From positions 1 through 64,000 of IMG/VR virus record IMGVR_UViG_3300037851_000671: a stretch of DNA of 64,000 bases; one strand, given 5' to 3'. The DNA comes from a virus (Duplodnaviria > Caudoviricetes). Under the pieces are notes generated by a model. It ran no database searches and was not told where the DNA came from. It saw nothing but the letters and a program-made list of their open reading frames with translations. Position numbers and translations under genes: made by a program. Of the stretch, positions 4,823-21,664 are shown piece by piece; within the stretch, counting starts at the first letter, position 1; every line of letters begins with the position of its first letter.

Positions 4823-4896
4823 CAAACAAATTTGTGGCATTCTCCAGTATTTAGATATGCATATGAAAGCTGTGCATGTTTTTACTGGAGAATTTG

Positions 4897-7833
4897 ATGA
4901 AGCAAGATAGTTTTGCCTCTTTGCTTGAGGCATACAGAGAAGGCGTCCTTTCAATGGACCCGGTCTTCTTTGTTGAGAATTTTTTAACTGTTGATGGCAA
5001 GTCGTTTGATTTGGGAACTGGATACAAGCCATTCAACGACATTTACAGATACATTGCCCTTCAAGCGGTTCAAGAAAACTCAAAGCCAATCGTAATGGTG
5101 AAGGGGCGTCAGGTTGGTGCCACCACCATGGCGGCGGCTTTGGAATGTTATTTCGTTGCATGTGGTCTGTTTGGAAATAACGGAAGACCACCAATGCGTA
5201 TGATGCATTTGTTTCCTACATTATCTTTGGCTGCCGCTTATACCAAAGACAAACTAGATCCAATCATTGGTTCTGCCCGTCCAGTACCAGGCGCTCTAAA
5301 ATCAAACGGACTTCTGAAGTCTTATATTGAAGCAAAACTAGACGCCTCCAATCCTGCCAACAACAACATGCACTTCAAGAAGTTCATGCACGGCAACCAG
5401 ATTTGGATTGAGTCTACTGGTTTGGATGGTGACCGTATTCGTGGACGAACCTGCGATGCTGCTTTTTTTGATGAGTGTTTTCCGTACTCTCAAAATATAG
5501 AAACTGATGTTGGCAAAGTTAAAATTGGAAAACTGTACGACATGTTCAAAGATGGTAAAACTTTACCACTAGTTAAAACGTACAATGAGGATTTGGATCG
5601 GTTCGAATTAAAACGTATCACAAATGCATGGAAACGTGGTGAGCGTGATCTTGTAAAGATAATTTGTGGTAATAGAGAGGTGCTATGCACTAGCAATCAT
5701 AGGTTTTTGACCACTGATGGTTGGAAACAGGCTAATGATATAGAGGTTGGAGAGTTGATAAAAACAACGCCAGCAGATGTTGGTCAATTATCAAAATCAC
5801 TAAACGACGATCAAATACAGATTATTTTAGGATCATTCCTTGGTGATGGTCATTTGTCAAAACACGGCCTTAATAAATATAGGATAAGCGAAAGGCACGG
5901 AATATCTCAACAAAACTATTGTGCCTGGAAGGCTGATATGTTTGGGGTAAAGCCTAAGCTTGTAGAAAAAAATGGATATTCACAGAAACCTGCGTTATCT
6001 TTTGCAAGCAAGTTATTTGGTTTTAAAGCCGATTTCCCATCAGAAAAAAACACCTGTCCACAATGGATTTTAGATCAGCTTGATGAACGTGGTCTTGCTA
6101 TATGGTTTATGGATGATGGTAGTACAAATAAACACATTGGTGGTGTTATAAATACATGCTCATTTGATGAAGAAACACAAATTAGGTTAGTAGCAAAACT
6201 AAAATCGTTTGGAATTGATTGTGAGTATAGGTTCTATAAATATAAAGGAAAGAAAAAAGAAGGTTACTATTCCATCTATCTTAACAAAACCGGTTATCGA
6301 AAGTTGTGCGACATTGTTCGTAAATATATTCATAGCGACTTGTATTACAAGGTATATGAGGCTTGCGATGAAACATCTTGTTATAAGTGGAATTCAAAGT
6401 TCAAACAACATGGTGTTATAACTGTTGTTGGTAAAGAGGTTGTAAACAAACCAGAATGTGTATATGATATTGAGGTTGAGGATAATCATAATTTCATAGT
6501 TACATCTGTAAAACATGCAAAAAATGGCGGTGGCCTGATCGCGCATAATTGCCAAGATATGTCTGATATTGCCATTGGTGCTGTTACCAAGATTCTGGCC
6601 CAATCAAAATACGGAGCAAGAGGCGAAGGTCTACAGGTATATTTCGGTACACCAAAGACAAAGGGCGGATCTTATTGGAAAATGTGGGAAGCATCTTGTC
6701 AAAACTACTACCACCTGCGTTGTGAGCATTGTGGAGAGTATTTCCCTCTGTATCGTCCAGACATCAACTGGGAAGATGTGTGGATTATTGGAACCACTGT
6801 AAGGTGCAGTTATTGTAAGCGAGATCAGGATAAAAACGAAGCTGTAGAACGTGGTAAGTGGGTTCCTCTAAACAACCCTGAAAATTCCGCGTTTGTTGGA
6901 TATCATATCAACCAGCTGTTTATCCCTCACTTTACCAGGGAAACGATTGAGAAAACCAAGCCAGAGAACAACAAGACCAACACCGAGAGGGTGTACATGA
7001 ACGAGGTTCTTGGTGAGTTTTTCGATGGTGATGGAGGAACCATTTCCGTTGAAGAGATTCGACAAAACTGTGCTGATAGGAATCGTAAACTATCAAAGAG
7101 CATTTCATCAGAGTCAAATCGAAAAGTGTATGCTGGTTTCGACTGGGGACAAAGAGCAGCGTTGGACCAAGCCACCGGAAGAAGGCAAGGAAAGTCATAC
7201 AGCTGTGCGGTTATTCTTACAGCAGATGGCCCGAACATTTTCAACGTAGAGTTTGCCACCCGTCTTCTAAGCAACGATCCTCAAGAGAAAGTGGATGTTG
7301 TAGAGGAGATGTTCAGGCGCTACACGGTTACGCTTGGAGTGGGAGATATTGGTGACGCCTTTGACCTTACACACAAACTGCAAAACATCCATGGTGATAG
7401 GTTTCTGGCTAGCCGTTCATCTTTCCGCATCAACGGTAGAGTAAAGTATTCTGAAGACGAATTTCCAAAAGTAATCCTTTTTGAGAAGGATTATTACATT
7501 GGTGAAATGATAGGTCTTATGAAAGAGGGTAAGATTAAATTTCCGTTTGGAAGCTATGATCGTATTGGTTGGTTGGTAAAACATTGTGCCAGTATGGATA
7601 CGAGGATTACGAGGGATAAGTCTGGTGAGCCGGTCAAAAGGTACGTCAAAGGAGATGGGCCAAACGACGGGCTCATGGCGCTTTTAAATGCGTATTTGGC
7701 TTGGAAATTTGATGTAACTCAAGGTTTCAAGATCAAGAGTCCGCAACAGATGCGGCATGACAGAGCAACCAATGTTCGGCAGATAGGTGCTATACTTGGT
7801 TATGTTCCGAAACTTTTTGGATCTAGGGGTTGA
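4897..7833 (+). CDS. terL: Terminase large subunit (intein-containing; about 620 aa after splicing)
   Basis: Walker A-like VMVKGRQVGATT; Walker B AAFFDE|C; CxxC..CxxC motif; nuclease motifs YAGFDWG and NDGLMA; ATG 4897 preceded by GGAGA (ORF track starts at 4876). Confidence 0.93.
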   Translation: MKQDSFASLLEAYREGVLSMDPVFFVENFLTVDGKSFDLGTGYKPFNDIYRYIALQAVQENSKPIVMVKGRQVGATTMAAALECYFVACGLFGNNGRPPMRMMHLFPTLSLAAAYTKDKLDPIIGSARPVPGALKSNGLLKSYIEAKLDASNPANNNMHFKKFMHGNQIWIESTGLDGDRIRGRTCDAAFFDECFPYSQNIETDVGKVKIGKLYDMFKDGKTLPLVKTYNEDLDRFELKRITNAWKRGERDLVKIICGNREVLCTSNHRFLTTDGWKQANDIEVGELIKTTPADVGQLSKSLNDDQIQIILGSFLGDGHLSKHGLNKYRISERHGISQQNYCAWKADMFGVKPKLVEKNGYSQKPALSFASKLFGFKADFPSEKNTCPQWILDQLDERGLAIWFMDDGSTNKHIGGVINTCSFDEETQIRLVAKLKSFGIDCEYRFYKYKGKKKEGYYSIYLNKTGYRKLCDIVRKYIHSDLYYKVYEACDETSCYKWNSKFKQHGVITVVGKEVVNKPECVYDIEVEDNHNFIVTSVKHAKNGGGLIAHNCQDMSDIAIGAVTKILAQSKYGARGEGLQVYFGTPKTKGGSYWKMWEASCQNYYHLRCEHCGEYFPLYRPDINWEDVWIIGTTVRCSYCKRDQDKNEAVERGKWVPLNNPENSAFVGYHINQLFIPHFTRETIEKTKPENNKTNTERVYMNEVLGEFFDGDGGTISVEEIRQNCADRNRKLSKSISSESNRKVYAGFDWGQRAALDQATGRRQGKSYSCAVILTADGPNIFNVEFATRLLSNDPQEKVDVVEEMFRRYTVTLGVGDIGDAFDLTHKLQNIHGDRFLASRSSFRINGRVKYSEDEFPKVILFEKDYYIGEMIGLMKEGKIKFPFGSYDRIGWLVKHCASMDTRITRDKSGEPVKRYVKGDGPNDGLMALLNAYLAWKFDVTQGFKIKSPQQMRHDRATNVRQIGAILGYVPKLFGSRG
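5476..6549 (+). mobile_element. Intein (358 aa) with LAGLIDADG homing endonuclease
   Basis: N-terminal CFPYSQNI, block B CTSNHRFLT, LAGLIDADG motifs ILGSFLGDG and LAIWFMDDG, block F VYDIEVEDNHNF, terminal HN followed by Cys+1; removal restores FFDECQD. Confidence 0.96.
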
Positions 7834-7850
7834 TATATTAGGAATGTACT

Positions 7851-9704
7851 ATGAGTAAAGGCGGCAATAAATCAAGAGCAGAACAATTGCTTGAGCAGAA
7901 GAAGACACTTCCTCCTGAATTATCTGATAGGATGGCACGTAGCGTAAGTGATTATAGGCGTGGCACTCTCGGAGAAGAGTTGGAATCTGGAATGTATAGG
8001 GAAAAAGGATCGTCTATGTATAAGGGTTCATCATCTCCTGATGAGGCAATGTTCAAGCCATCAATGCTTGGTATGATATCACACTCAAGCGGTGGTAAAA
8101 ACATTTACAAGAAAGGTGATGGCAGCAGTTCAAATGTAGGGACTCAACCATCAAGCAGTTGGCGAGGATCGAACAACACAGACAGGCAAATACCAGAAGT
8201 ATACTCGCCATTGTGGCTCAACTCGAACCTGAACCTTCCAAGAGACAGAACCACAATCAATGCCTGGAGCCGTTCGTTCTTTGCCCTGAATCCAATTGTT
8301 CATAATGCCATTACTCTTCACTCTACATACCCAATTGCCAAACTCAATATCAAGTGCAAAGACCCAGCGATAGAGAAGTTCTTTGCCCAGATGATTGATG
8401 AGATTGACCTCATGAATGTCTGTACAATGATTGCTCAGGAATACTACATTCTTGGCGAAGCATTTGTGTATGGTGAGTTGAATGAGGCTACAGGCAAATG
8501 GTCACGCCTCATGATATTGAACCCTGACTACATCAACGTTCAGCGTTCAGTTATAGCCGCTGAGCCAATCATCAGTTTGCGTCCAGACGAAAACCTGAAG
8601 CGTGTTGTGTTTGGTAACAAGCCAGCAGATATACAGCAGCGTAAACAGCTGGATCCTAGCATCATTGAGCATGTACGCAGGAATGAGAACATACCTCTCA
8701 ACAACTTCTACGTATCCCATATTGCCAGAAGGATTTCGCCGTATGAGATTCGTGGAACTGGCATTATCGTAAGCGCTTTCAGACCACTCATGCTTTTTGA
8801 TAAGTTGAGAGAGTGTAAGTATGCGCAGGCTGATAACATGATCAATCCTCTCACATTGGTGAAGATTGGTGATGCAGAATTCAAGCCAGGTCCAGCAGAT
8901 CTTGAGCATTGGAGAAACGTATTCGAGGAAGGTGAGAGCGATAAGAATTTCAAGATATTTACACACAACTCAGTGACAGTTGAGCGTGTTGGTTATGGAC
9001 AGGGTATTTATGATACGTCCAATGATATCACCCAGTTGATCAAGGAGATTTACATTGGGTTGATGGTGCCGTCTGTGATTATGGATGGCAGCGATACGAC
9101 CTATGCCACAGGAAGCGTTGCGCTGGATGTTTTGAGACAGCGTTACATGCAGTTCAGAAACTACATGTCCAGCTGGCTAAGGAATAGAGTTTTTGCTCCA
9201 ATATCACAGATCAACGATTTTTATGAGTATGTTGATGGCGAGAAGGTGCTGATTGTTCCAGAGGTTGATTGGAATCATATGTCATTGTTTGACATGGATA
9301 CTTTCATTAACAACCTAATCAATCTATCTCAGGGTGAGGGTCCTGCCAAGAGAGTTTCTTTGCAAACGCTGTATAGAAGCATTGGTTTGGAATATGAAGA
9401 GGAGCAGCGTAAACTCAGATACGAAGCAATACAAGATGCTATACGTCAAAGAGAGCTGGCTTCATTGCAGAAGTACAGTTTGCATGAGTTGAAATCGCTT
9501 GGACCGAATGATGATATTGAGGAAGTTACACAAGAACCGGTGCCTGGTGAGAGTCCGTACATCTCTGGTGCTGGTGGGGCACCTCCGGGTGCTCCTGGTG
9601 GCGGCGGAGGCGGAGCACCACCTCCACCTCCGGGCCTTGGACCAATGCCAGGAGCACCTCCACCTCCTCCAATTGGTGGTGGCGGAAAGCCACCTGGACC
9701 ATGA
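7851..9704 (+). CDS. Portal protein with Pro/Gly-rich C-terminal tail
   Basis: Immediately after terL; 617 aa; portal-like segments HIARRISPYEIRGTGII and NPLTLVKIG; tail GAPPPPPGLGPMPGAPPPPPIGGGG. Confidence 0.85.
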   Translation: MSKGGNKSRAEQLLEQKKTLPPELSDRMARSVSDYRRGTLGEELESGMYREKGSSMYKGSSSPDEAMFKPSMLGMISHSSGGKNIYKKGDGSSSNVGTQPSSSWRGSNNTDRQIPEVYSPLWLNSNLNLPRDRTTINAWSRSFFALNPIVHNAITLHSTYPIAKLNIKCKDPAIEKFFAQMIDEIDLMNVCTMIAQEYYILGEAFVYGELNEATGKWSRLMILNPDYINVQRSVIAAEPIISLRPDENLKRVVFGNKPADIQQRKQLDPSIIEHVRRNENIPLNNFYVSHIARRISPYEIRGTGIIVSAFRPLMLFDKLRECKYAQADNMINPLTLVKIGDAEFKPGPADLEHWRNVFEEGESDKNFKIFTHNSVTVERVGYGQGIYDTSNDITQLIKEIYIGLMVPSVIMDGSDTTYATGSVALDVLRQRYMQFRNYMSSWLRNRVFAPISQINDFYEYVDGEKVLIVPEVDWNHMSLFDMDTFINNLINLSQGEGPAKRVSLQTLYRSIGLEYEEEQRKLRYEAIQDAIRQRELASLQKYSLHELKSLGPNDDIEEVTQEPVPGESPYISGAGGAPPGAPGGGGGGAPPPPPGLGPMPGAPPPPPIGGGGKPPGP

Positions 9705-9775
9705 TGATTTGGGTTTTACCCTTTATGGGTCCGGGCATATTTTGGCTTCTTGTTTAGAGATCGATCAGGAGACAT

Positions 9776-12700
9776 ATGACTTTTGAAAAAGAAGCGCAAA
9801 GCCGTTCAATCGTGAACAGGGTTATTGAGACCGTTAATCCTATAACCGGTGTTCGTACATGGTTGAGTGATGATTATGGTGCAGATTTGGAAGCTCTCGT
9901 TGCGCTTGATGATACCATCAGGTCAAATGCACTGGAGGATGAGCCCTCTATGCGCGAGGCTATACACAATGCACGCATGGCTATGAATAGCAGGCTTTAC
10001 CCAGATGTTATCGCAAACGTTTGGGTTTTGCTGGCATTTGCAAGCCGTGTTATTGGACCCGTTGAACAGTTCAAGAGTCGTGGCACAGATGCTGTCAAGA
10101 AATTTTACGAAAAAACGGAACTTGGAAAAGATCAGTTTGCTCAGGTGCAAAAGGATTATGAAGCGTCTTTGCCAAACCAGCCACAGCACATTCAGGAGAA
10201 GTTTACACCAAAGCCAGCCCCAACCGCCACCACCACAACTCAACCATTGGCTGGGACATCTTTGGTACAACCTGCCGCTGGAAATCCGGCAGCATCTGGC
10301 ATTCCTCCTCTTGGAGCCGCAGCTGTACTTGCAGAGCATGGCCTAATATCAAAGGCTGATTTGACAGATATGTGGTATGGTGCGAAAGAGATGCTGCCAA
10401 CGTGGCGTGGTCTTGAGGGTGGTGTTCTGGAGAAGGCTTATGGTCTTCAGATGCAAGAACAACGTGAAAGTGCAAGACAAGCACTTGCCCTTGGTAATGA
10501 GGTTTTCAGAGGCTTGAAGAGAATGTTTCAGAAGATGGATTATGCCAGGGCAACCGGTATGGTTTCCAATTATCTGAAGGCGTATGATGCGTTCAAGCAG
10601 CAGTTAGTGGCCAAGTGGGGTGATTGGTATACACTCTATCAGGCACGTTTCATAAATGACATTCCTGCATTGGCAAAGGTTGATGTAAAGAACATTACCG
10701 CTGCCCCTCAACAGGCTGCCGGTGTTGCTTCTACTTTGGCATCATCGCCTGCTGGTGCTGGTGCTGGTGCTGCTGCAAGGGAAGCTCCTCCCGCTGGTGC
10801 AGCCGGTCCAACAGGTCCAACAGGGGCAACCGGTGTAACGGGAGTCACAGGGGCAACTGGAGCGGCAGCTAAGACCACCACCACCACCACAACTGGGGTA
10901 ACAGGAGCCACAGGCGCCACAGGCGCCACAGGAGCCACCGGAGCAACGGGACCTACAGGCCCAGCAAAGGGAACATTCCCAGTTCCAAAATACCCACACC
11001 TTAGAAGTTTGAAGAACAAGGAGCAAAGGAAAACAGAGATTCATGGATTCGTATTGGAAGACAACATGGCACTTAGGGTGACTGTTGGTGAAGAAATAAA
11101 GCTCAAGGATTTTTTGGGCAAGTGGTTTGACTATGACACAGTAGAAAAAGCCGCAAAGATATCTGACGTAATCAATAAAGGAAGAGTGCTTGTTGATGGA
11201 AATATCGTTAGAGATCCTGAGTTAAAGCTACACACCGGTCAAAGAGTGATTGTGACCGAGCAAACAGTCCCAGAACCAAAAAAACCAAATGCCATATACT
11301 TTGCACTTGCTGCAACTAAGCCAACAGTAATAGAATCTCTAAAGGACTTTTTCAATAACGAGGTTGGTGATGATGTATTGAAGAAATACATTGAGAAGGG
11401 TTGGGTATCATTCACAAATGATAAAGGTGGTTTGGAGATAACAACCAAAACCAATCAGCCAGTTGGTGCTGGTAAGAGCATTACTGTTCGCATGTTGAGC
11501 AAGGAAGTTCCAAACAAATATCACGGAAAGGGATTCTCCACAGAGATGCGTGAAGATCTTTCTTCTGGAAGGGTATCAGATTCAGCGGCTCAGCCTGCTG
11601 CTGCCAAGGCTCCGGCGAAACGTGAAGCCGAACCCATTACAGGAAATGATGCCGACCTTCTCAGTATTGAACAAGACGATTTCATCCTAAAAGCAAAAAA
11701 GAACCTTGGAACGCTTAAAGATGTAATAAGCCGTTTGGGTGCTGACTACGATCCTTCACAGCCTTATGTACATTTTGTAAACGGTGTAGAATCTAAGAAA
11801 CTAGACACACCAATCCCAATGGGTACAATGGTAAAGCTCTACCAGACAGTAATAGATCCTTCCCAAAGAAGGAATGCCAATCTTATCAAAGATAAGGTTA
11901 GTCTGTTTGATTTCTTGCTGAGTAAAGTTACTGTGACACCTGAAAACAAAGCCGCTGTAGAAGAAGGCATTCAGAAAATGATTTCTGGTGGTCAGGTTTA
12001 TGTCAACAACAATGTTCAGAAAAACAATGTTGAATTGGAACCAGTCAAAGAAAATGGACTTGGCGGGGATGTTGTGGTTGTTGCAAAAGACGGAGCAGCT
12101 CCTAAAAACAAAATACCAGAAGGCGATAAAGAGTTCCTGGTTGGTGGAAAGGACAAAGGAACTGACATAGGTTCTTTCATATACGCAATGGTAACATCGA
12201 TACCTTCATTTCAATCAATATCACCACGTTTGAAAACGCCATGGGTTGATGCTTTGTTGAGTTCTGGAAGGGTTTCTAACAAAGACGGCACAATCACAGA
12301 TAAGGGTTATCAAGTACAAGAGGATGAGAAGATTACTGTCAAAGACTGGAAGGGTGCTTTGGATAACCTTAGACTCCAAATGGCTGGCGTTAGAAAAGGA
12401 CGCGATGCAGGTGGAGAGGCCGCTTCAGAGAATCCAGAAGATTATGATTGGGATGAAACCGGAGAAGGCAGTTTTAACTTGGAAGAAGAAGGCACACAAA
12501 CCGCAGGTGCTGAGCCAGCTGTCGGTGGCCCAGGTGGAAAGGAATATTTCAAGACCGTACATTTGCCACAGTTTTCTTCCTACACAGTAACAAAGAACAC
12601 CAAGCTTAAAAAGCTTGTATCTCTTTGGTATGCGGATGATAAGGTTGGAGCGGCTGATATAAAGAGTGGTAACATTCTTGTTGGCGGCAATCCAGTCACA

Positions 12701-14320
12701 GAGCCCGGAACTGAAATTGCTAGTGGAAGCGTACTTACGTTGAAAGATGGTGATACGGATAAGCTAAAAGGCGAGCGTATGATGCTGTCTGAGGCAGTGG
12801 CTGATTACGTCAACAGCAGATACCCTGGCAGGTTTGCAGAAGCTGAAATAGATCAGTTGTTCTCTGCTGGAAAAGTAACAGTTGATGATAAGGATGTACA
12901 GCCTAATCTAAATGTAGATCCTCAGTCTTTGATTGAGGTTGATTTTACAGGACTAGACCTGCCAGCACCAGCGGAAGCTTCAACATCTACAGCTCAATCA
13001 ACACCAGCGGCAGCACCAAAACCTGTGAAGGAAGCTCCAAAAGCAAAAGAGGCTCCGGCCCCAGCTCCAGCTGAGCCTCCAGCTCCTATTGAGGTTAATC
13101 CAAATACACCAACTTATACTCCAGATGGTAATGTCAAATTACAAACGGCTGTTGGTGCTTGGGGTATGAATTGGAAGACACCAATCAATGTCACTGAGGC
13201 AAAAGCTCTCATTGCTAGTGGAAGAGTTTATGTTGGTTCAGACAAGGTGACAGATCCAAGGTTCATGGTTGGTCCAGACAGCGTAATATCTCTGGATAAA
13301 ACGCCAGCCGCTGATGTTCCTGCTGCTGCCGCCGATACCACCAAAGAGATAGTAACAAAAACCCTAAAGCCAGATGGTCAAGGTTTGTTGAATGCTATTC
13401 GTGCTAATGTCAAACCTCCAATGCCTGATAAGGAAATAGCACGTGCAATCAGAGACGGCAGGGTTACAGTTGATGGAAATGTTGTAACAAAACCTGGAAC
13501 TGTTGTAAAGCCAGAAAATGTGATCAAAATTACAATGCCTATAACTGAGGCTCCGGAAAAGGCTAAGGAAACAGTTCCAACAGCAGAAGAAGCAACACCA
13601 GTAGCAGAAGAAAAGCCAGTTGAAACTGTAGAAGGCGGTGGTAACAAATTTGTTGTACCTTATTCTGGAACAACGGAAGACCATGCTTATGTCCCACCAT
13701 CAGGCAGTTTAAAACATGCCCTTTCAGATTTCTTGAAGAAAAACGATATGGAAGAGGTAAATGTTGATGACTTGATTAGAAGCGGTCGTGTAAAGGTGAC
13801 AACTATTGATAATGATAACATAAAAGAAATTCCGGCCGATGGACAATATATAACCAAGCCAAGTGATGAGATTTTGATTGAGAACCTGCCATCAGAACTA
13901 AAGCATGTAAAACTCACAGCCCAAACCGATACGACGCTCAAAACATTACTAGACGCCTTTGTGGCTAAGAAATCCTCTGGAGACGGTGCCTCGGCAGCTC
14001 TGTACAAACAGATTGATGTTGCAGCCTTGATAGAAAATGGCTTTGTATGGGTCAATGGTTCAGTTGTAAAAGAGCCTGATGCTCAAATAGCAAAGGAGTC
14101 TGTTGTAAAGATGTTCCATGACAATAGCATGCTAAGGTCAGCTGCAATGCGTATAGTGAACAGGATGATCAAGCAAGCAGAGGTAGCGTACGAGAACGGC
14201 GCGGTATACATTGCTAATACAATCCTGAAGAAAGCCGCTGATGTATGCGCAATGGTTGGAGACTATAGTAACGGTAACAAACTTCTGATTGCCGCTAACA
14301 AGTTGGTCAAAAATGGATAA
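9776..14320 (+). CDS. 1514-aa multidomain protein with about 10-11 tandem S4-like RNA-binding repeats
   Basis: Repeated L(K/D)xxL...xI/LxxGxVxV(D/N)G..V..P....(G/P)..I.V units, e.g. [49 protein letters not shown]; helical N-terminus; collagen-like G-x-T block. Confidence 0.8.
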
Positions 14321-15824
14321 AACAGGGAATGAAATCTCAAACTTTACCAATGATCTGGTCATCCTTCGTCAAGCCGCACTTGAGCTTCACAGGGATGAAC
14401 CGGACTTGGTGCGCGTAGCTGGCATTGTCCAGAGAATACGCAATTGGTGGAAAGCCAGGTTTGATACAGATTTCATGAACAGGCAAAACGAGCTTCAGGG
14501 TAAGTATGAAGCTCTAAAGCCTTCCATGTCAGAGCTGATTACCAATCTGAATGCATTGGAGAACGGATTCAAAGACCAAGACCCAGATGCAGTGGCACAG
14601 CTTGTTGGCCCCATCAGATCAATACTTCCTCGTGTCATGTCTGAAATTTCCAAATTCAACAAGTCAATCAAAGACACTGATAATGCCGTACCAAGTGAAA
14701 CTGTTACTCCAAAACCTCAACAAGAAGCAGAAAAAGGCGGTAAATTCATCCGTACAGTTACAAGAGAACAGGCTAATGATCCTGAGGTTCTGAAACAGCT
14801 AATCAGTCAGTTGGATAAAAATTTCGATGTTCCAATACGTGATGGCATATACAAAAAACTAACAGATTTCAATTGGTACAAGAGCTATAAGAAAATAGAA
14901 ATAAGCACAGATGTCAAAAGGAACATCTGGGACAGGGTGGAGACAGCTCTACTAAATAGTCCATTAGCTTCAAACATATCAAGAGAAGATGCCGTTGAGA
15001 TACTGAATTATGGATTCTCAACTATGATAGAGAATCTTGAAAAATCTATCTTGAACTTTGGTATAATCAACTCGTGTGCGCCAGCATTCCCAAGCGAGAA
15101 CAGTAGCGTAAAAAACAGACCAGCCAATGAAATGAGGCTTGACATAAATGCGGGTGCTGTGGCTTTGCCCTCTTCAAAGTACAGCATATACATTGAATTC
15201 CCTCATGTCATTCTAATAGATCTTGGTACAGCAGAGAAGAAGATCAAGGCGCTGTCAATGGCTGCTGTAAACAACATAAGAGTATCAACACATTCAGATT
15301 TCAGAATACGAGAGACTCCGGTGACAACTGAAGCCTCGGCAGCGGAACCTGTAGCTGATCAGGCTACAACCGTTGCTGATCAGGCTACAACTGTCAATGC
15401 ATCAGTCAACCCTGATAACATTCTTGTCAAGTTGGTGAAACGCCATTTGATTGCCTCTTCGCTACCTAAGACACGTGTACTGATAAAGTCAACAAACGAA
15501 GTTCCAAGAGAGTATCTTGTTAGATACATGAAGGTTTTGGGATCTGCGTTGAGGGAAGAGCTTGACGCAGAATCATCCGTTCATGATGGTGGAAGTCAAT
15601 TGGTGGAAGTTGAGTCTGACATATACGGTAGTGATATTGCAGTAAAAGATGCAGCTTACGGAATTGCTTCTGGGGTATCTGATGCATTTGAGAAAGCCTT
15701 TGGATACGGTATCAAGGTTGCTATAGATATCGGAACATCATCTGAGCACGGTTTGATTTCTTCAGCGGTGCTTGATGAGAGTTTCAGGAAATTGGCTTTC
15801 GAGTCATGGAGCAGGAATGTCTGA
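14313..15824 (+). CDS. Putative head protein (coiled-coil N-terminus)
   Basis: ATG overlaps the previous stop; LVRVAG and FRKLAF motifs; heptad-like helical region. Confidence 0.7.
15351..15392 (+). repeat. 21-bp tandem duplication (VADQATT x2), in frame
   Basis: gtagctgatcaggctacaacc followed by gttgctgatcaggctacaact. Confidence 0.85.
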
Positions 15825-16132: not shown

Positions 16133-17218
16133 ATGCCTGCCAAATTTGCAGAGGTGGTGAAAGGCCTATTTCGTGGTGGTGCGCCTTCTAATGAGGACAT
16201 CAACATGCTTCGTGACCTTTGGGGTGTGAACAAAATTGTCAGTCTTGATGGAGATGTAGCTGACAATATTGCGCCAACTGTTCGTGCCCTTGGGATGAAG
16301 CACGTTGTTTTAGACCTTGGGACCGGAGATGATCCAAGGGTTGAAACGCTGAAAAAGAAGATAGTTCCTTCATTGTTAGATGATGGTCCAACATATGTTC
16401 ATTGCAAGCATGGCAAGGACAGAACCGGAATGGCTGTAGCTATGTTCCGTATTTTGACGGGATGGCCAATTGAGAAAGCCCTGGCCGAAGCTGCTAAGTT
16501 TGGAATGGGTAAGGGTATGCCAAAAGACGTTGGTAATACGTACTATGAGGCTGTGAGTTCTTTCAAGCCAAACCAGGATACCAATGATGCCGCTGATGTT
16601 GTAGATGCCGCAAGAGAAACACTGCAACACAATCCAGCTATTGATAATTCAGCTATATCTAATCCAAACCAGTGTAGTTTCAGTTTACCAACGGATGGTA
16701 ATGCTCCAAGGATAAGCAGGTCAGCGGCGTTCCAGGCCATGTTGCGTGTCAATGCGTGGAATGCTCTTACTCCTAAAGTTTATTGTCAATGCAAACAAGA
16801 AGATAGATATAAGAAGCAGTTGTGGTTCTCTTCTCCACAGATGGCAAAGCAACACGCCAACAACAGCAAGCTTCCTTTGTTTTCCGCTGAGATCAGACAA
16901 TCAGAAAGGGTTAGTGCGCCAATGCCAAGCACCAAGTCAAACAAGGCACTAGAGGACCATTGGTTATCTAAAGGAATGGATATCGTCAAATTCACTGATA
17001 ATGTGTTTTTGGTATTAGTTCCAAACAATGCATTGGATGCAATGGTTGAGGAGGAGGCTGGCACATCCTCCCAAGACAAAAACGATATGATTGAAGTTGG
17101 AATAAGGGATAATTATCAGGGTGGAGGGGACAGTTATATTGGTAACCCTGGTGGTGGAGCGCCGATTAGTGGTGGGTTTGCCGGAACTACCTTCTTGCCG
17201 TTCTCTAATGGTTTGTAA
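16133..17218 (+). CDS. Dual-specificity/tyrosine phosphatase (CX5R) with C-terminal extension
   Basis: P-loop YVHCKHGKDRTG; FRGGAP at the N-terminus; strong RBS AAGGAGGAG. Confidence 0.9.
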   Translation: MPAKFAEVVKGLFRGGAPSNEDINMLRDLWGVNKIVSLDGDVADNIAPTVRALGMKHVVLDLGTGDDPRVETLKKKIVPSLLDDGPTYVHCKHGKDRTGMAVAMFRILTGWPIEKALAEAAKFGMGKGMPKDVGNTYYEAVSSFKPNQDTNDAADVVDAARETLQHNPAIDNSAISNPNQCSFSLPTDGNAPRISRSAAFQAMLRVNAWNALTPKVYCQCKQEDRYKKQLWFSSPQMAKQHANNSKLPLFSAEIRQSERVSAPMPSTKSNKALEDHWLSKGMDIVKFTDNVFLVLVPNNALDAMVEEEAGTSSQDKNDMIEVGIRDNYQGGGDSYIGNPGGGAPISGGFAGTTFLPFSNGL

Positions 17219-18064: not shown

Positions 18065-21000
18065 ATGACTCTAATCAAACTTGGAGAGGCTGTTCAGTTA
18101 GATCCTCGTTCTTTAAGATCCGTTGATGCTTTTGCTGGTGATGTTGATTTGGACATTGATGGAAAAATGTACAAGTTCGCTCAGCAGCTCAAGGTCATTG
18201 CACCACAGGCAAAGGACTTTTTGTACTTTACATGTGTGATGATGCATGCGGCTGAAGCGGCTCTTTTGAATGACGACGGATCGTTGAAAAAACACGCAGA
18301 CGGCAGACCAGTATCTGCTGGCTGGGAAAACACACCCAATGGCGGTGTAAAATGGATATGTAGCGACCCAGGTATAAGGGCCTACAAGAACAACAATAAC
18401 GACATATTCCCAGAGTTAGAGCTAAAGACAGCTTACAAGAAATGGGTGGGTCGTCCTCTGTGCCTCGATCATAAGTCAGATTCTGTTGACAAGATTCGAG
18501 GCGTTATTGTTGATACGGTATGGGATGACAAGCGCAAGAGAGTGATTGCTCTGTGTGCTTTGGACAAGAAGAACTACCCAGACCTAGCTGATAAAGTTTC
18601 CTCTGGTGTGGCCGCCAACGTATCTATGGGTACTGCGGTTGGTAGGGCCGTTTGCACCGAGGCTGGATGTCATCGTGTTGCAAGAACTGAAAAAGATTTC
18701 TGCGCACATATGAGAAGCAAGACATGCTACGGAGAAATAAATCTTGACCTTGCCCCAATAGAGTTGTCTTTGGTGGTTAATGGAGCGGATCCAAAAGCCA
18801 AGGTAAAGCATGTTATAGCACAAGACTTAGGTAAGGCAGCGGAGTTGCTGACAGACTATCTTAGCTTAAAAGAGTCTGCCAAGAAAGTATCTACGCAAGA
18901 TCTGGCATCAATAAAAAGAGACCTTGCCCACCTGAGTGACAAGCTTGCACAGCTTGAAAATGGTGATGAAAATGATTCGGGCGTAGTTGAAGTGTCGAAG
19001 GCAACACGTACCCCAGCAAGTGTCAATATACATTCGACAGAAAAAACAGCATCGGAGGAAGATGAAATCCCACCGTATGCTTCTGAGTTACAGAAAGCAA
19101 TTCTGCGAGCACATACAAAAATTGCATCTCTGCAAGACAACTTTAACAGACTTTCTTCAGTTTCGAAGAGCGAGGAACAAAACATGAGTACAAAACGCGC
19201 ATATTATCAGGGAACCGTGGAGCCAAAGCCAGGCGATACCATGTACCAACCAGATCCGTTAGCCGATAAGGCGAGGCTGATGGACAAACACCTACATGGC
19301 CCAGGGGCTTTCCCTGACGTAGGCGATGTTGAGGGAATGTATCCGGGCATCACCCAGGATGACAAGGATCTCAAGAAGACCCTTCAGCGTTTGGCTGACG
19401 AAGAGGAGAGGGCAATGTTCCGTGAGGCAGCTCTCAAGAAAGCCAAGGAACAGCTGATGAAGCGTCATGCTTATATACAGGGCACCACAGAGCCAAATGC
19501 TGGCGGTGTAACTTACAAGCCAGATCCATTGGCTGATAAGGCTCGTGAAGAGGATAAGCACCTTGAGGGCGCTCCTCCATTCCCAGGTGTTGGCAAGGTT
19601 GACGGTCTCTATGATGATGACCTCGCTACAAAAGAGAAGCTTTCCCGTGCCGGTCTCAGGGCTAGATTTGAGAAGGTTGCATTCCCAGATGGTCGTTTGA
19701 ATAAGGCCGCTTCTCGTTGGGAAGTATATGCTGGAAACAAGCTCGTTCTTGCTGCTACCGTTGATCAGATTACAAAGGGAAATGCCCGTCATCTGTATGA
19801 AGCTGTTGCCACCAAGCGTTTTGGTGAGAGTCTTTTGAGCAGAATCAAGACAGAAGGATTTCAGGCCACAGCCAACGCCATGTTGAAGAGCGCTGCGGAT
19901 CCAGCCCCTGCCGCTGATCCTGCCGCTCCAGCTCCAGCCCCAGCAGCTCCTCCAGCGGGAGATGCGCCAGGTCTTGAGCCTCCAAAGGATGTTGACGCAG
20001 CTGCTCCGGCAAATGTTCCAGACATTGCAAAAGACATTCAGGATCTTGGAGATGAGCTTGTTCAGAAAGCGAATGATCTTGTTGAAGCTTCTGGATCGGT
20101 TGATAAGGATGCCAAGAATCTTGAAGGTGTACCAGAGGCCGGTGCAGATGAGTTCAAGGCTGCCGAGCAGGGTAAGCCACAGAAAGACGCCGCTCTTCAG
20201 AGCATGCGTAAGACTGTAAATGGTATGTTGCGTGATGGAATTCGTGAGACAGCGGGTAATCTGCTCAGTCATGCGAAGGAGCTTCATACAGCTCGTGAAG
20301 TATACTTGACAAGCTACGCTTCCATGTCCCCACAGCAACGTCAGTATTTGAATGCGCTCACAGTTGATGCTGTACAAGATGCTAGAGCGCTATTGGCAGA
20401 AACAACTAAACTCATGGGCGCTGTGATCAAGTACGCGTATGGTACGGCTGAGCTTGAGAAGCGCGCAGGAGCAAATTCACAAGGAGCGCTTATGAGCTAT
20501 GCCGAAGACGATGAGAACGATGCAAAGAAGGGCAAGAACCCATTCGCCAAGAAGGATGAGGACGATAAGAAAGACGACGATGAGGATTCAAAGAAGTGCA
20601 AGGACGATGAGAACGATCTGAGTGATAGTGATATCAACGATCTCATGAAGAGCCTGAGCGATGAGGATGATTGCGGTTACATGGACGAGAATGATCTTGT
20701 TCCTCAAACCGCAAATAAGCCAGCTACCCCTCAGCCAGCAATACCACCAGGACAGGGCAAGCCAGCTCCAGGTCCAGCACCAACACCAGTTCCTGCACCA
20801 GCTCCAGCTCCACAGGATGAGGACGATTTGTTCAAGTTTGATGATGAGAATGATTTGTTTGCTGATGACGACGCTGACGCTGATGACAATGACTCTGTCA
20901 AGCTCGATGTAGACGATGCCGGCAAGATCGGAATTTCTACAGCGGCTGGACGTGCAGCTCTCCGTACCAAGATTGCAAAGGACGGACTACTCGGATTCAA

Positions 21001-21664
21001 CGAGCTTAGTCAGCAGGCTCACCCACGTGGTAGCGCAGAGATCCCAGGCAAGCTTGACACGAAGCCATCCGTTGAGTCCAAGTTCCACGTGTTCAAGGAC
21101 CTCAAGGAGCAGATGCTTGATCTGGCTCACATGCCACCAAAGGTTCGCAAGCAGGCTGAGGAGATTCAGCGCTTGATAACGGCCGGACAGCTCAAGGTTG
21201 CCGACGTTGGACAGCTTGCTTCCTTCGGTGTTGATCAGGCAGCTATTGCATTCTGGAAGGAGCTGTATGGTCAGGGCGATTCCAAGAGCAAGGAGTTCGC
21301 AAAGGAACTGACTTCTGAGCATGAGACTCAGAAGCGCGCTGAGGATGCCCGTATATACGAAGCCCGTGTAAAGCGTGCTTATGACCTGGCTTACGAGATG
21401 CGTGAGAGAGGAATGATTGAAGGCAGCCAGATGAAAGAGCAGGTTGACGAGATCATGAAGTGGAATGATGACGGATTCACCTCTGTAAAGAGAATGATTG
21501 GTCGTCAGCCAGTGGTCAAGCAGGCTTCTGTTCCGATGGTTGGTTTGCTTCACTCCGGTGATGTAATTCTCCCAGCTGCTGGTGCTTTCTCGGCATCCGG
21601 CGGAAATGGCGACGGTGATATCAAGAACTATTTCGACAGCTACTTCGCTAACAAGAAGTTCTAA
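18065..21664 (+). CDS. Prohead maturation protease fused to a long scaffold-like region
   Basis: HK97/assemblin-type motifs PLCLDH (His), NVSMG (Ser) and IELSLVVNGADPKA; Cys/His cluster CTEAGC..FCAH; C-terminal acidic, coiled-coil and Pro/Ala segments. Confidence 0.85.
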   Translation: MTLIKLGEAVQLDPRSLRSVDAFAGDVDLDIDGKMYKFAQQLKVIAPQAKDFLYFTCVMMHAAEAALLNDDGSLKKHADGRPVSAGWENTPNGGVKWICSDPGIRAYKNNNNDIFPELELKTAYKKWVGRPLCLDHKSDSVDKIRGVIVDTVWDDKRKRVIALCALDKKNYPDLADKVSSGVAANVSMGTAVGRAVCTEAGCHRVARTEKDFCAHMRSKTCYGEINLDLAPIELSLVVNGADPKAKVKHVIAQDLGKAAELLTDYLSLKESAKKVSTQDLASIKRDLAHLSDKLAQLENGDENDSGVVEVSKATRTPASVNIHSTEKTASEEDEIPPYASELQKAILRAHTKIASLQDNFNRLSSVSKSEEQNMSTKRAYYQGTVEPKPGDTMYQPDPLADKARLMDKHLHGPGAFPDVGDVEGMYPGITQDDKDLKKTLQRLADEEERAMFREAALKKAKEQLMKRHAYIQGTTEPNAGGVTYKPDPLADKAREEDKHLEGAPPFPGVGKVDGLYDDDLATKEKLSRAGLRARFEKVAFPDGRLNKAASRWEVYAGNKLVLAATVDQITKGNARHLYEAVATKRFGESLLSRIKTEGFQATANAMLKSAADPAPAADPAAPAPAPAAPPAGDAPGLEPPKDVDAAAPANVPDIAKDIQDLGDELVQKANDLVEASGSVDKDAKNLEGVPEAGADEFKAAEQGKPQKDAALQSMRKTVNGMLRDGIRETAGNLLSHAKELHTAREVYLTSYASMSPQQRQYLNALTVDAVQDARALLAETTKLMGAVIKYAYGTAELEKRAGANSQGALMSYAEDDENDAKKGKNPFAKKDEDDKKDDDEDSKKCKDDENDLSDSDINDLMKSLSDEDDCGYMDENDLVPQTANKPATPQPAIPPGQGKPAPGPAPTPVPAPAPAPQDEDDLFKFDDENDLFADDDADADDNDSVKLDVDDAGKIGISTAAGRAALRTKIAKDGLLGFNELSQQAHPRGSAEIPGKLDTKPSVESKFHVFKDLKEQMLDLAHMPPKVRKQAEEIQRLITAGQLKVADVGQLASFGVDQAAIAFWKELYGQGDSKSKEFAKELTSEHETQKRAEDARIYEARVKRAYDLAYEMRERGMIEGSQMKEQVDEIMKWNDDGFTSVKRMIGRQPVVKQASVPMVGLLHSGDVILPAAGAFSASGGNGDGDIKNYFDSYFANKKF

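Follow-up and report, generated by a model that had tools for sequence, protein, structure and literature searches.

The window analyzed here covers the initial 64 kb of an IMG/VR virus record of 218,772 bp (IMGVR_UViG_3300037851_000671; CheckV completeness, 51%), which is a fragment of the genome of a huge phage. We examined one gene of its head module, an open reading frame (ORF) of 1514 amino acids (aa) that we call P0001 and that lies directly downstream of the large terminase (4876-7833) and portal (7851-9704) genes. The middle of P0001 holds a tandem array of small domains resembling S4, a domain known almost solely as an RNA binder, and its two ends belong to a family of proteins encoded right after the portal in related phages. 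Our main finding, drawn from sequence comparison, is that this poly-S4 giant is a conserved head-module protein whose tether has expanded in this lineage. The main elements of the locus outside the array are as follows (HMM, hidden Markov model; pLDDT, predicted local distance difference test):

7851..9704, + strand: portal gene (phrog_16240, E 2.8e-49)
9776..14320, + strand: P0001, whole ORF, 1514 aa, uninterrupted, matched by an independent contig without differences
9776..10675, + strand: conserved N-terminal helical domain (aa 1-~300), starting M-x-F-E-K-E-A-Q (BLAST, HMM; homologue model all-helical, pLDDT 81)
10778..10969, + strand: collagen-like G-X-T stretch, 8 + 9 triplets broken by a poly-Thr run (Pfam Collagen 22.6 bits; 9-nucleotide DNA tandem repeats)
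14141..14311, + strand: conserved helical tail at the C-terminus (aa 1456-1512), modelled as a three-helix bundle in the homologue (pLDDT ~95 there)

A single public run contains this DNA, a freshwater metagenome that is probably the source sample; no RNA run containing it is listed among public runs. In the independent Logan assembly of that run, positions 9000-15500 lie in one contig, at a depth of about 19 and with zero differences. The long ORF is therefore not an assembly chimera, and we rejected an artefact as its origin. The guanine-plus-cytosine content is not deviant.

Eleven units were delimited in the array, and each was scored in a leave-one-out test, in which an HMM built from the other ten units was applied to it and compared with 500 shuffles per unit:

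11072..11275, + strand: S4-like unit 1 (aa 433-500); Pfam S4 24.5 bits, also S4_2; leave-one-out 34.1 bits
11306..11512, + strand: candidate degenerate S4-like unit 2 (aa 511-579); leave-one-out 1.3 bits; hhalign E 0.045
11684..11860, + strand: candidate truncated S4-like unit 3 (aa 637-695); leave-one-out -0.2 bits; hhalign E 0.028
11876..12103, + strand: S4-like unit 4 (aa 701-776), marginal; Pfam S4 E 0.0039; leave-one-out 6.7 bits
12137..12361, + strand: S4-like unit 5 (aa 788-862); leave-one-out 16.5 bits
12578..12763, + strand: S4-like unit 6 (aa 935-996); leave-one-out 31.3 bits; Pfam E 0.0066
12764..12964, + strand: S4-like unit 7 (aa 997-1063); leave-one-out 20.7 bits
13109..13315, + strand: S4-like unit 8 (aa 1112-1180); Pfam S4 24.3 bits; leave-one-out 31.8 bits
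13358..13555, + strand: S4-like unit 9 (aa 1195-1260), the best unit; Pfam S4 32.7 bits; leave-one-out 42.9 bits
13682..13900, + strand: S4-like unit 10 (aa 1303-1375); leave-one-out 22.3 bits
13907..14134, + strand: S4-like unit 11 (aa 1378-1453); Pfam S4 22.5 bits; leave-one-out 31.7 bits

Against the whole of P0001, Pfam S4 (PF01479) scores 90.4 bits (E 5.8e-26; cut-off 22.8) over six stretches, and all S4 matches of the 219-kb record fall inside this protein. Taken singly, units 1, 8 and 9 pass the Pfam cut-off (24.5, 24.3 and 32.7 bits), and unit 11 reaches 22.5 bits. Eight units (1, 5, 6, 7, 8, 9, 10 and 11) score 16-43 bits in the leave-one-out test, their shuffles never exceeding 10 bits. 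The profile of the units aligns by hhalign with a profile of eight S4 domains from Escherichia coli K-12 (probability 97.2%, E 3.7e-11) over 52 columns that run from helix 1 to the beta-hairpin. Moreover, a PDB search with a nine-unit profile retrieves the S4 domains of uS4, eS4, RluB and YlmH, the eS4 alignment spanning positions 4-62, and the S4-family proteins matched in NCBIfam and PDB include TlyA. Units 2 and 3 score at background in the leave-one-out test, so that their S4 identity is not established statistically. Judged visually and with hhalign, both are nevertheless in register: unit 2 has helix 2 and the hairpin, and unit 3 has the V-x-V-N-G hairpin half only, without helix 2. As judged from these comparisons, nine units are S4-like and two are candidates.

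Unit-to-unit identity is only 19-31%, and P0001 contains no DNA-level repeats outside the collagen-like stretch; the S4 fold has thus been maintained through a long divergence, which suggests that the array is used for something. Conservation among units is limited to core hydrophobic positions and one Gly. A two-domain super-repeat was considered and rejected, as pairwise unit scores have no odd/even pattern.

An earlier reading of this DNA, made from the letters alone and referred to below as the original prediction, had described a giant ORF directly after the portal with 10-11 tandem S4 domains and no catalytic domain. The ORF is indeed intact at 1514 aa, all eleven predicted ranges fall within our units, and the per-repeat Pfam check proposed at that time places units 1, 8 and 9 above the cut-off. 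The count itself holds for nine units, eight of them through the leave-one-out test and unit 4 marginally; units 2 and 3 stay candidates. No catalytic domain is present in P0001 according to Pfam, NCBIfam and PHROGs.

The ends of P0001 were also predicted to be special, and this proved correct in that one is the conserved N-terminal domain of a head-module family and the other its C-terminal three-helix bundle. Searching IMG/VR with the portal yielded 147 stretches that are 58-75% identical to it, the contigs being up to 448 kb long, and the best 80 loci were used. In 61 of these 80 loci, the gene right after the portal is homologous by HMM to P0001 residues 1 to about 300, and BLAST of the P0001 N-terminal region against the post-portal proteins gives 22-29% identity with E values down to 7e-27. 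An HMM built from the C-terminal tails of the eight relatives nearest to P0001 scores 17-18 bits on P0001 residues 1456-1512 (E 7e-8), the best of 1000 shuffles reaching 12.2. Full-length relatives are 364-561 aa long. P0001 has an N-terminal helical domain of about 290 aa, a C-terminal three-helix tail and a position between the portal and a 511-aa ORF, like the other members of the family. Gene order is strictly kept in the closest long loci (orf298, orf286, terminase, portal, carrier family, orf511, phosphatase, orf212, protease fusion), and the orthologous slot and conserved synteny are found in loci L008, L012, L018, L020, L022 and L024.

An AlphaFold model of a 364-aa relative, built from a 47-row alignment, is all helical (pLDDT 80.9) with a confident C-terminal three-helix bundle; single-sequence AlphaFold of P0001 residues 1-320 gave no usable fold (pLDDT 37). 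With VIA-align the tail finds generic three-helix, MIT- or TPR-like matches at Z ~10, which is below the meaningful level for helical bundles. Phage_Mu_F/SPP1 gp7 has no match in P0001 (E <= 1) or in ten relatives (E <= 0.1). The protein in the same slot of Bacillus phage G, gp15, was compared as a possible homologue and rejected as unrelated.

The family start M-x-K-x-A-Q-[KR]-R is near-invariant and reads M-T-F-E-K-E-A-Q in P0001; only this N-terminal K-x-A-Q, among the K-x-A sites, is conserved across the family. The extreme N-terminus, M-x-K-x-A-Q-[KR]-R-[SG], is near-invariant in 45 proteins that are otherwise 14-48% identical to the reference row of the alignment, a pattern that suggests a docking or processing signal. 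In a subgroup of three loci (L011:4126-5352, L016:11890-13131 and L020:11887-13092), the post-portal ORF extends about 50 aa past the usual tail as a conserved segment, which is an additional small domain or else a downstream gene that has been fused.

Between these ends, 45 full-length relatives have a fast-evolving linker of 36-206 aa (median 98), mostly made up for 50-90% of P/A/E/Q/S/T/G. The same position in P0001 is occupied by about 1140 aa, namely the collagen-like G-X-T stretch and the S4 array with its Pro/Ala/Glu spacers. Since the ends are homologous and the linker is variable in relatives, P0001 is a lineage-specific tether expansion and not a free-standing giant. The longest linker, 206 aa in the 561-aa protein of L008 (11976-13658), has 44% of the same residues and is much less low-complexity; it may hold a different small folded insert at this site.

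The S4 units could be genuine multivalent RNA binders that co-package tRNAs or small phage RNAs, or that capture ribosomes or 50S subunits after ejection, as the original prediction proposed. The S4 fold is indeed known almost exclusively as an RNA binder (uS4, Hsp15/RqcP, YlmH, TyrRS, pseudouridine synthases), multivalency could offset weak single sites, and the head region encodes a PolyA_pol-type nucleotidyltransferase. Moreover, the residue of the G-R/K-V motif is kept in about half of the units, as in the E. coli S4 domains. The positions that make RNA contacts tell against it. Arg10 and Arg24 of Hsp15, equivalent to Arg2 and Arg16 of RqcP, are highly conserved and contact helix 69 of 23S rRNA (PMC9757039). 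Taking the conserved helix 1 Leu and the G-x-V Gly as anchors, we located the corresponding positions: the Arg10 equivalent is basic in three of ten phage units, always as Lys, compared to seven of eight E. coli S4 domains, and the Arg24 equivalent in none of ten, five being acidic, compared to all eight in E. coli. Besides, every Pfam match of a unit is limited to model positions 17-48 and never includes the N-terminal RNA-contact half, whereas the matches of the eight E. coli domains, at 33-71 bits, extend over essentially all 48 positions of the model. The net charge of the array, -25, points the same way, but we rejected net charge as an argument against RNA binding, because E. coli S4 domains span +7 to -3 (RluF 0, RluD -3). 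Canonical rRNA or tRNA binding by the units is thus doubtful from their residues, eleven Hsp15-like ribosome binders are unlikely, and we regard an RNA scaffold as a whole as unlikely.

At the other extreme, the S4 fold could serve, by exaptation, as a stable and soluble bead that makes a disordered tether longer or bulkier, filling the head or spanning a distance, and that has no ligand. The loss of the RNA-contact positions and the restriction of conservation to core hydrophobics and one Gly are what such a spacer would look like; the family linker, variable in length and sequence, is tolerant of change, and that of L008 is also longer and less low-complexity. It is difficult to see, however, why 1140 aa would be needed when relatives on contigs of up to 448 kb use a linker of about 100 aa. 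The maintenance of nine or more folded domains down to about 25% identity suggests selection beyond length, and G-R-V and V-T-x-P motifs are found repeatedly on what is presumed to be the surface of the units. We regard a purely inert spacer as unlikely, about as probable as an RNA scaffold. An external fibre or whisker, trimerized by the collagen-like segment and projecting the bead string from the head or neck as an adhesin, is very improbable: bead arrays such as the Ig-like domains of Hoc and tail proteins are common on phage surfaces and G-X-T stretches are typical of phage fibres (PHROG tail-fibre matches, PDB match to BclA), but the gene sits between the portal and the prohead protease, outside any neck or tail module, the collagen segment is absent from relatives, and its Pfam match (PF01391), with only 8 + 9 triplets, is at 22.6 bits below the cut-off of 27.2.

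The account that we hold, with moderate confidence, to be the most probable is that the S4 bead string is borne into the prohead as a passenger of the conserved, scaffold- or core-like ends, its contact with nucleic acid being weak and non-canonical, or its role being mere reach or bulk. The conserved ends would perform the assembly role of the family, most likely as a scaffold- or core-type protein in the prohead near the portal; because they belong to a head-module family, incorporation into the prohead is plausible. By sequence, the beads keep the S4 core but lack the basic residues with which canonical S4 domains contact rRNA or tRNA, so that weak non-canonical contacts or simple reach and bulk are the most likely roles. 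They would form a flexible string that either binds nucleic acid in this weak manner, the packaged DNA or RNA after ejection, or only provides length and volume. The carrier resembles scaffolding and prohead-core proteins in gene position and in layout: it is predicted to be helical, with a flexible middle and a small helical domain at the C-terminus.

Several points weigh against this account of a passenger in the prohead. The scaffold- or core-like label rests on gene position and architecture, and the carrier family has no sequence match in Pfam, PHROGs, NCBIfam or PDB. Fold searches with the relative's model returned one uncharacterized phage protein in BFVD, nothing in PDB with Foldseek, and matches with TM scores of at most 0.25 in the Atlas. 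RluD and RluF are genuine RNA binders without being basic, so that RNA binding is compatible with the charge observed; Lys stands at the Arg10 equivalent in three units, and unit 9 has a net charge of +4. The phage is also known from one metagenome.

A bolder version of the passenger model is conceivable, in which the linker is a natural cargo slot and S4 strings loaded into the capsid are ejected with the DNA to bind host or phage RNA multivalently, such as ribosomal subunits or tRNAs. We consider this improbable, slightly more so than the RNA scaffold discussed above.

Homologues with the same architecture, which the original prediction had suggested looking for, were not found; relatives share only the ends. 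No array homologue was detected by tblastn among 50,697 phage records, and word-indexed searches with the whole of P0001, residues 1-313 or the unit alignment had a collagen-like protein as their sole match. An exhaustive phmmer search of residues 400-1514 against 1.84 billion representatives gave 0 matches, in a collection from which P0001 itself is absent and in which its sample is therefore unrepresented. Peptide-pattern scans of IMG/VR and JGI metagenomes and a feature search of the ESM Atlas revealed no array relative either. The post-portal proteins of relatives contain no S4 unit, and five large related genomes have at most occasional single S4 genes, located elsewhere. A literature search on poly-S4 proteins, or S4 proteins in phage virions, found nothing relevant, and the remark in the original prediction that it knew of no described poly-S4 virion protein agrees with the literature and databases searched. 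The domain family itself is known; 9-11 S4 units, their setting in a phage head module and their origin by tether expansion are without precedent in the databases and literature searched.

The surroundings of P0001 are those of a head module. Among cultured phages, the portal is closest to gp14 of Bacillus phage G (32% identity). P0001 is followed by the 511-aa ORF, the gene of a phosphatase of the PTP type, an ORF of 212 aa and the gene of a 1199-aa protein that contains a prohead-protease domain; the major capsid gene is about 19 kb downstream. The 511-aa ORF, with the TTG start as listed, overlaps the 3' end of P0001 at window positions 14289-14320; an in-frame ATG at 14313 would reduce the overlap to 8 nucleotides, an arrangement that suggests translational coupling. 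The phosphatase (16133-17218) is of the PTP/DSP Cys type (Y_phosphatase2, E 6e-11); its position within the head module is conserved in 42 related loci, so that it is possibly a packaged enzyme. In the 1199-aa protein (18065-21664), residues ~104-219 match the head-maturation protease phrog_18299, and homologous fusions in related loci are 1125-1534 aa long, so that the very long C-terminal part is a feature of the clade. The large terminase (4876-7833, 985 aa) contains an intein with a LAGLIDADG homing endonuclease (Pfam Intein_splicing, LAGLIDADG_2); terminases of relatives occur in short (~620-630 aa) and long (~970-990 aa) forms, so that only some of the relatives carry the intein. At positions 834-1583, shortly before the packaging genes, lies the gene of a nucleotidyltransferase of class II (PolyA_pol head domain, E 5.6e-13).

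Few RNA-binding folds are older than S4, which is almost always found in single copy. P0001, which is a singleton and comes from a single freshwater metagenome, illustrates how expansion of a disordered tether can add a large passenger to a structural phage protein, as a natural counterpart of engineered scaffold-cargo fusions. If the array binds RNA, it would point to a packaged factor acting on host translation or on phage RNAs, and, should the improbable cargo-slot model be true, to a virion-delivered poly-S4 RNA scaffold, the first of its kind. Without RNA binding, the array would clearly exemplify the reuse of an RNA-binding fold as a structural bead.

Single-domain S4 binders (Hsp15/RqcP, YlmH, uS4, RluB/RsuA/TyrRS/TlyA) belong to the same domain family by profile. 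P0001 differs from them by its 9-11 copies per chain, by having no catalytic or ribosomal partner domain, by the location of its gene in a phage head module and by the absence of the two hallmark RNA-contact arginines from its units; the connection between helices 1 and 2 is also longer in eight of ten units (20-34 residues overall, compared to 22-23 in E. coli). Ribosomal protein S1, with six S1 domains, and multi-KH proteins are tandem arrays of nucleic-acid-binding folds with conserved binding residues. P0001 has a similar multivalent layout of small folds on flexible linkers, but with a different fold, and the binding residues are not conserved in its units.

Among phage proteins, post-portal minor head proteins of the MuF/SPP1 gp7 type, some of which are fused to toxin or polyvalent cargo, share with P0001 the slot after the portal and, in the reading proposed here, the combination of a head-internal carrier with extra domains; unlike them, neither P0001 nor its relatives match Phage_Mu_F. 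Phage G, the closest cultured phage by portal, has the unrelated gp15 in the carrier slot. Phage scaffolding and prohead-core proteins serve as cargo carriers, as do P22 gp8 and the T4 core and internal proteins; the gp8 gene directly follows the portal gene, and the protein is helical with a small C-terminal helical domain that binds coat. The carrier part of P0001 has no sequence or fold match to any scaffold protein, and the major capsid gene is about 19 kb downstream. Like P22 gp8 and the T4 core proteins, however, it adjoins the portal and lies upstream of the prohead protease, and it is predicted to be all-helical with a flexible middle and a C-terminal bundle; a passenger fused to a protein of this type would be encapsidated.

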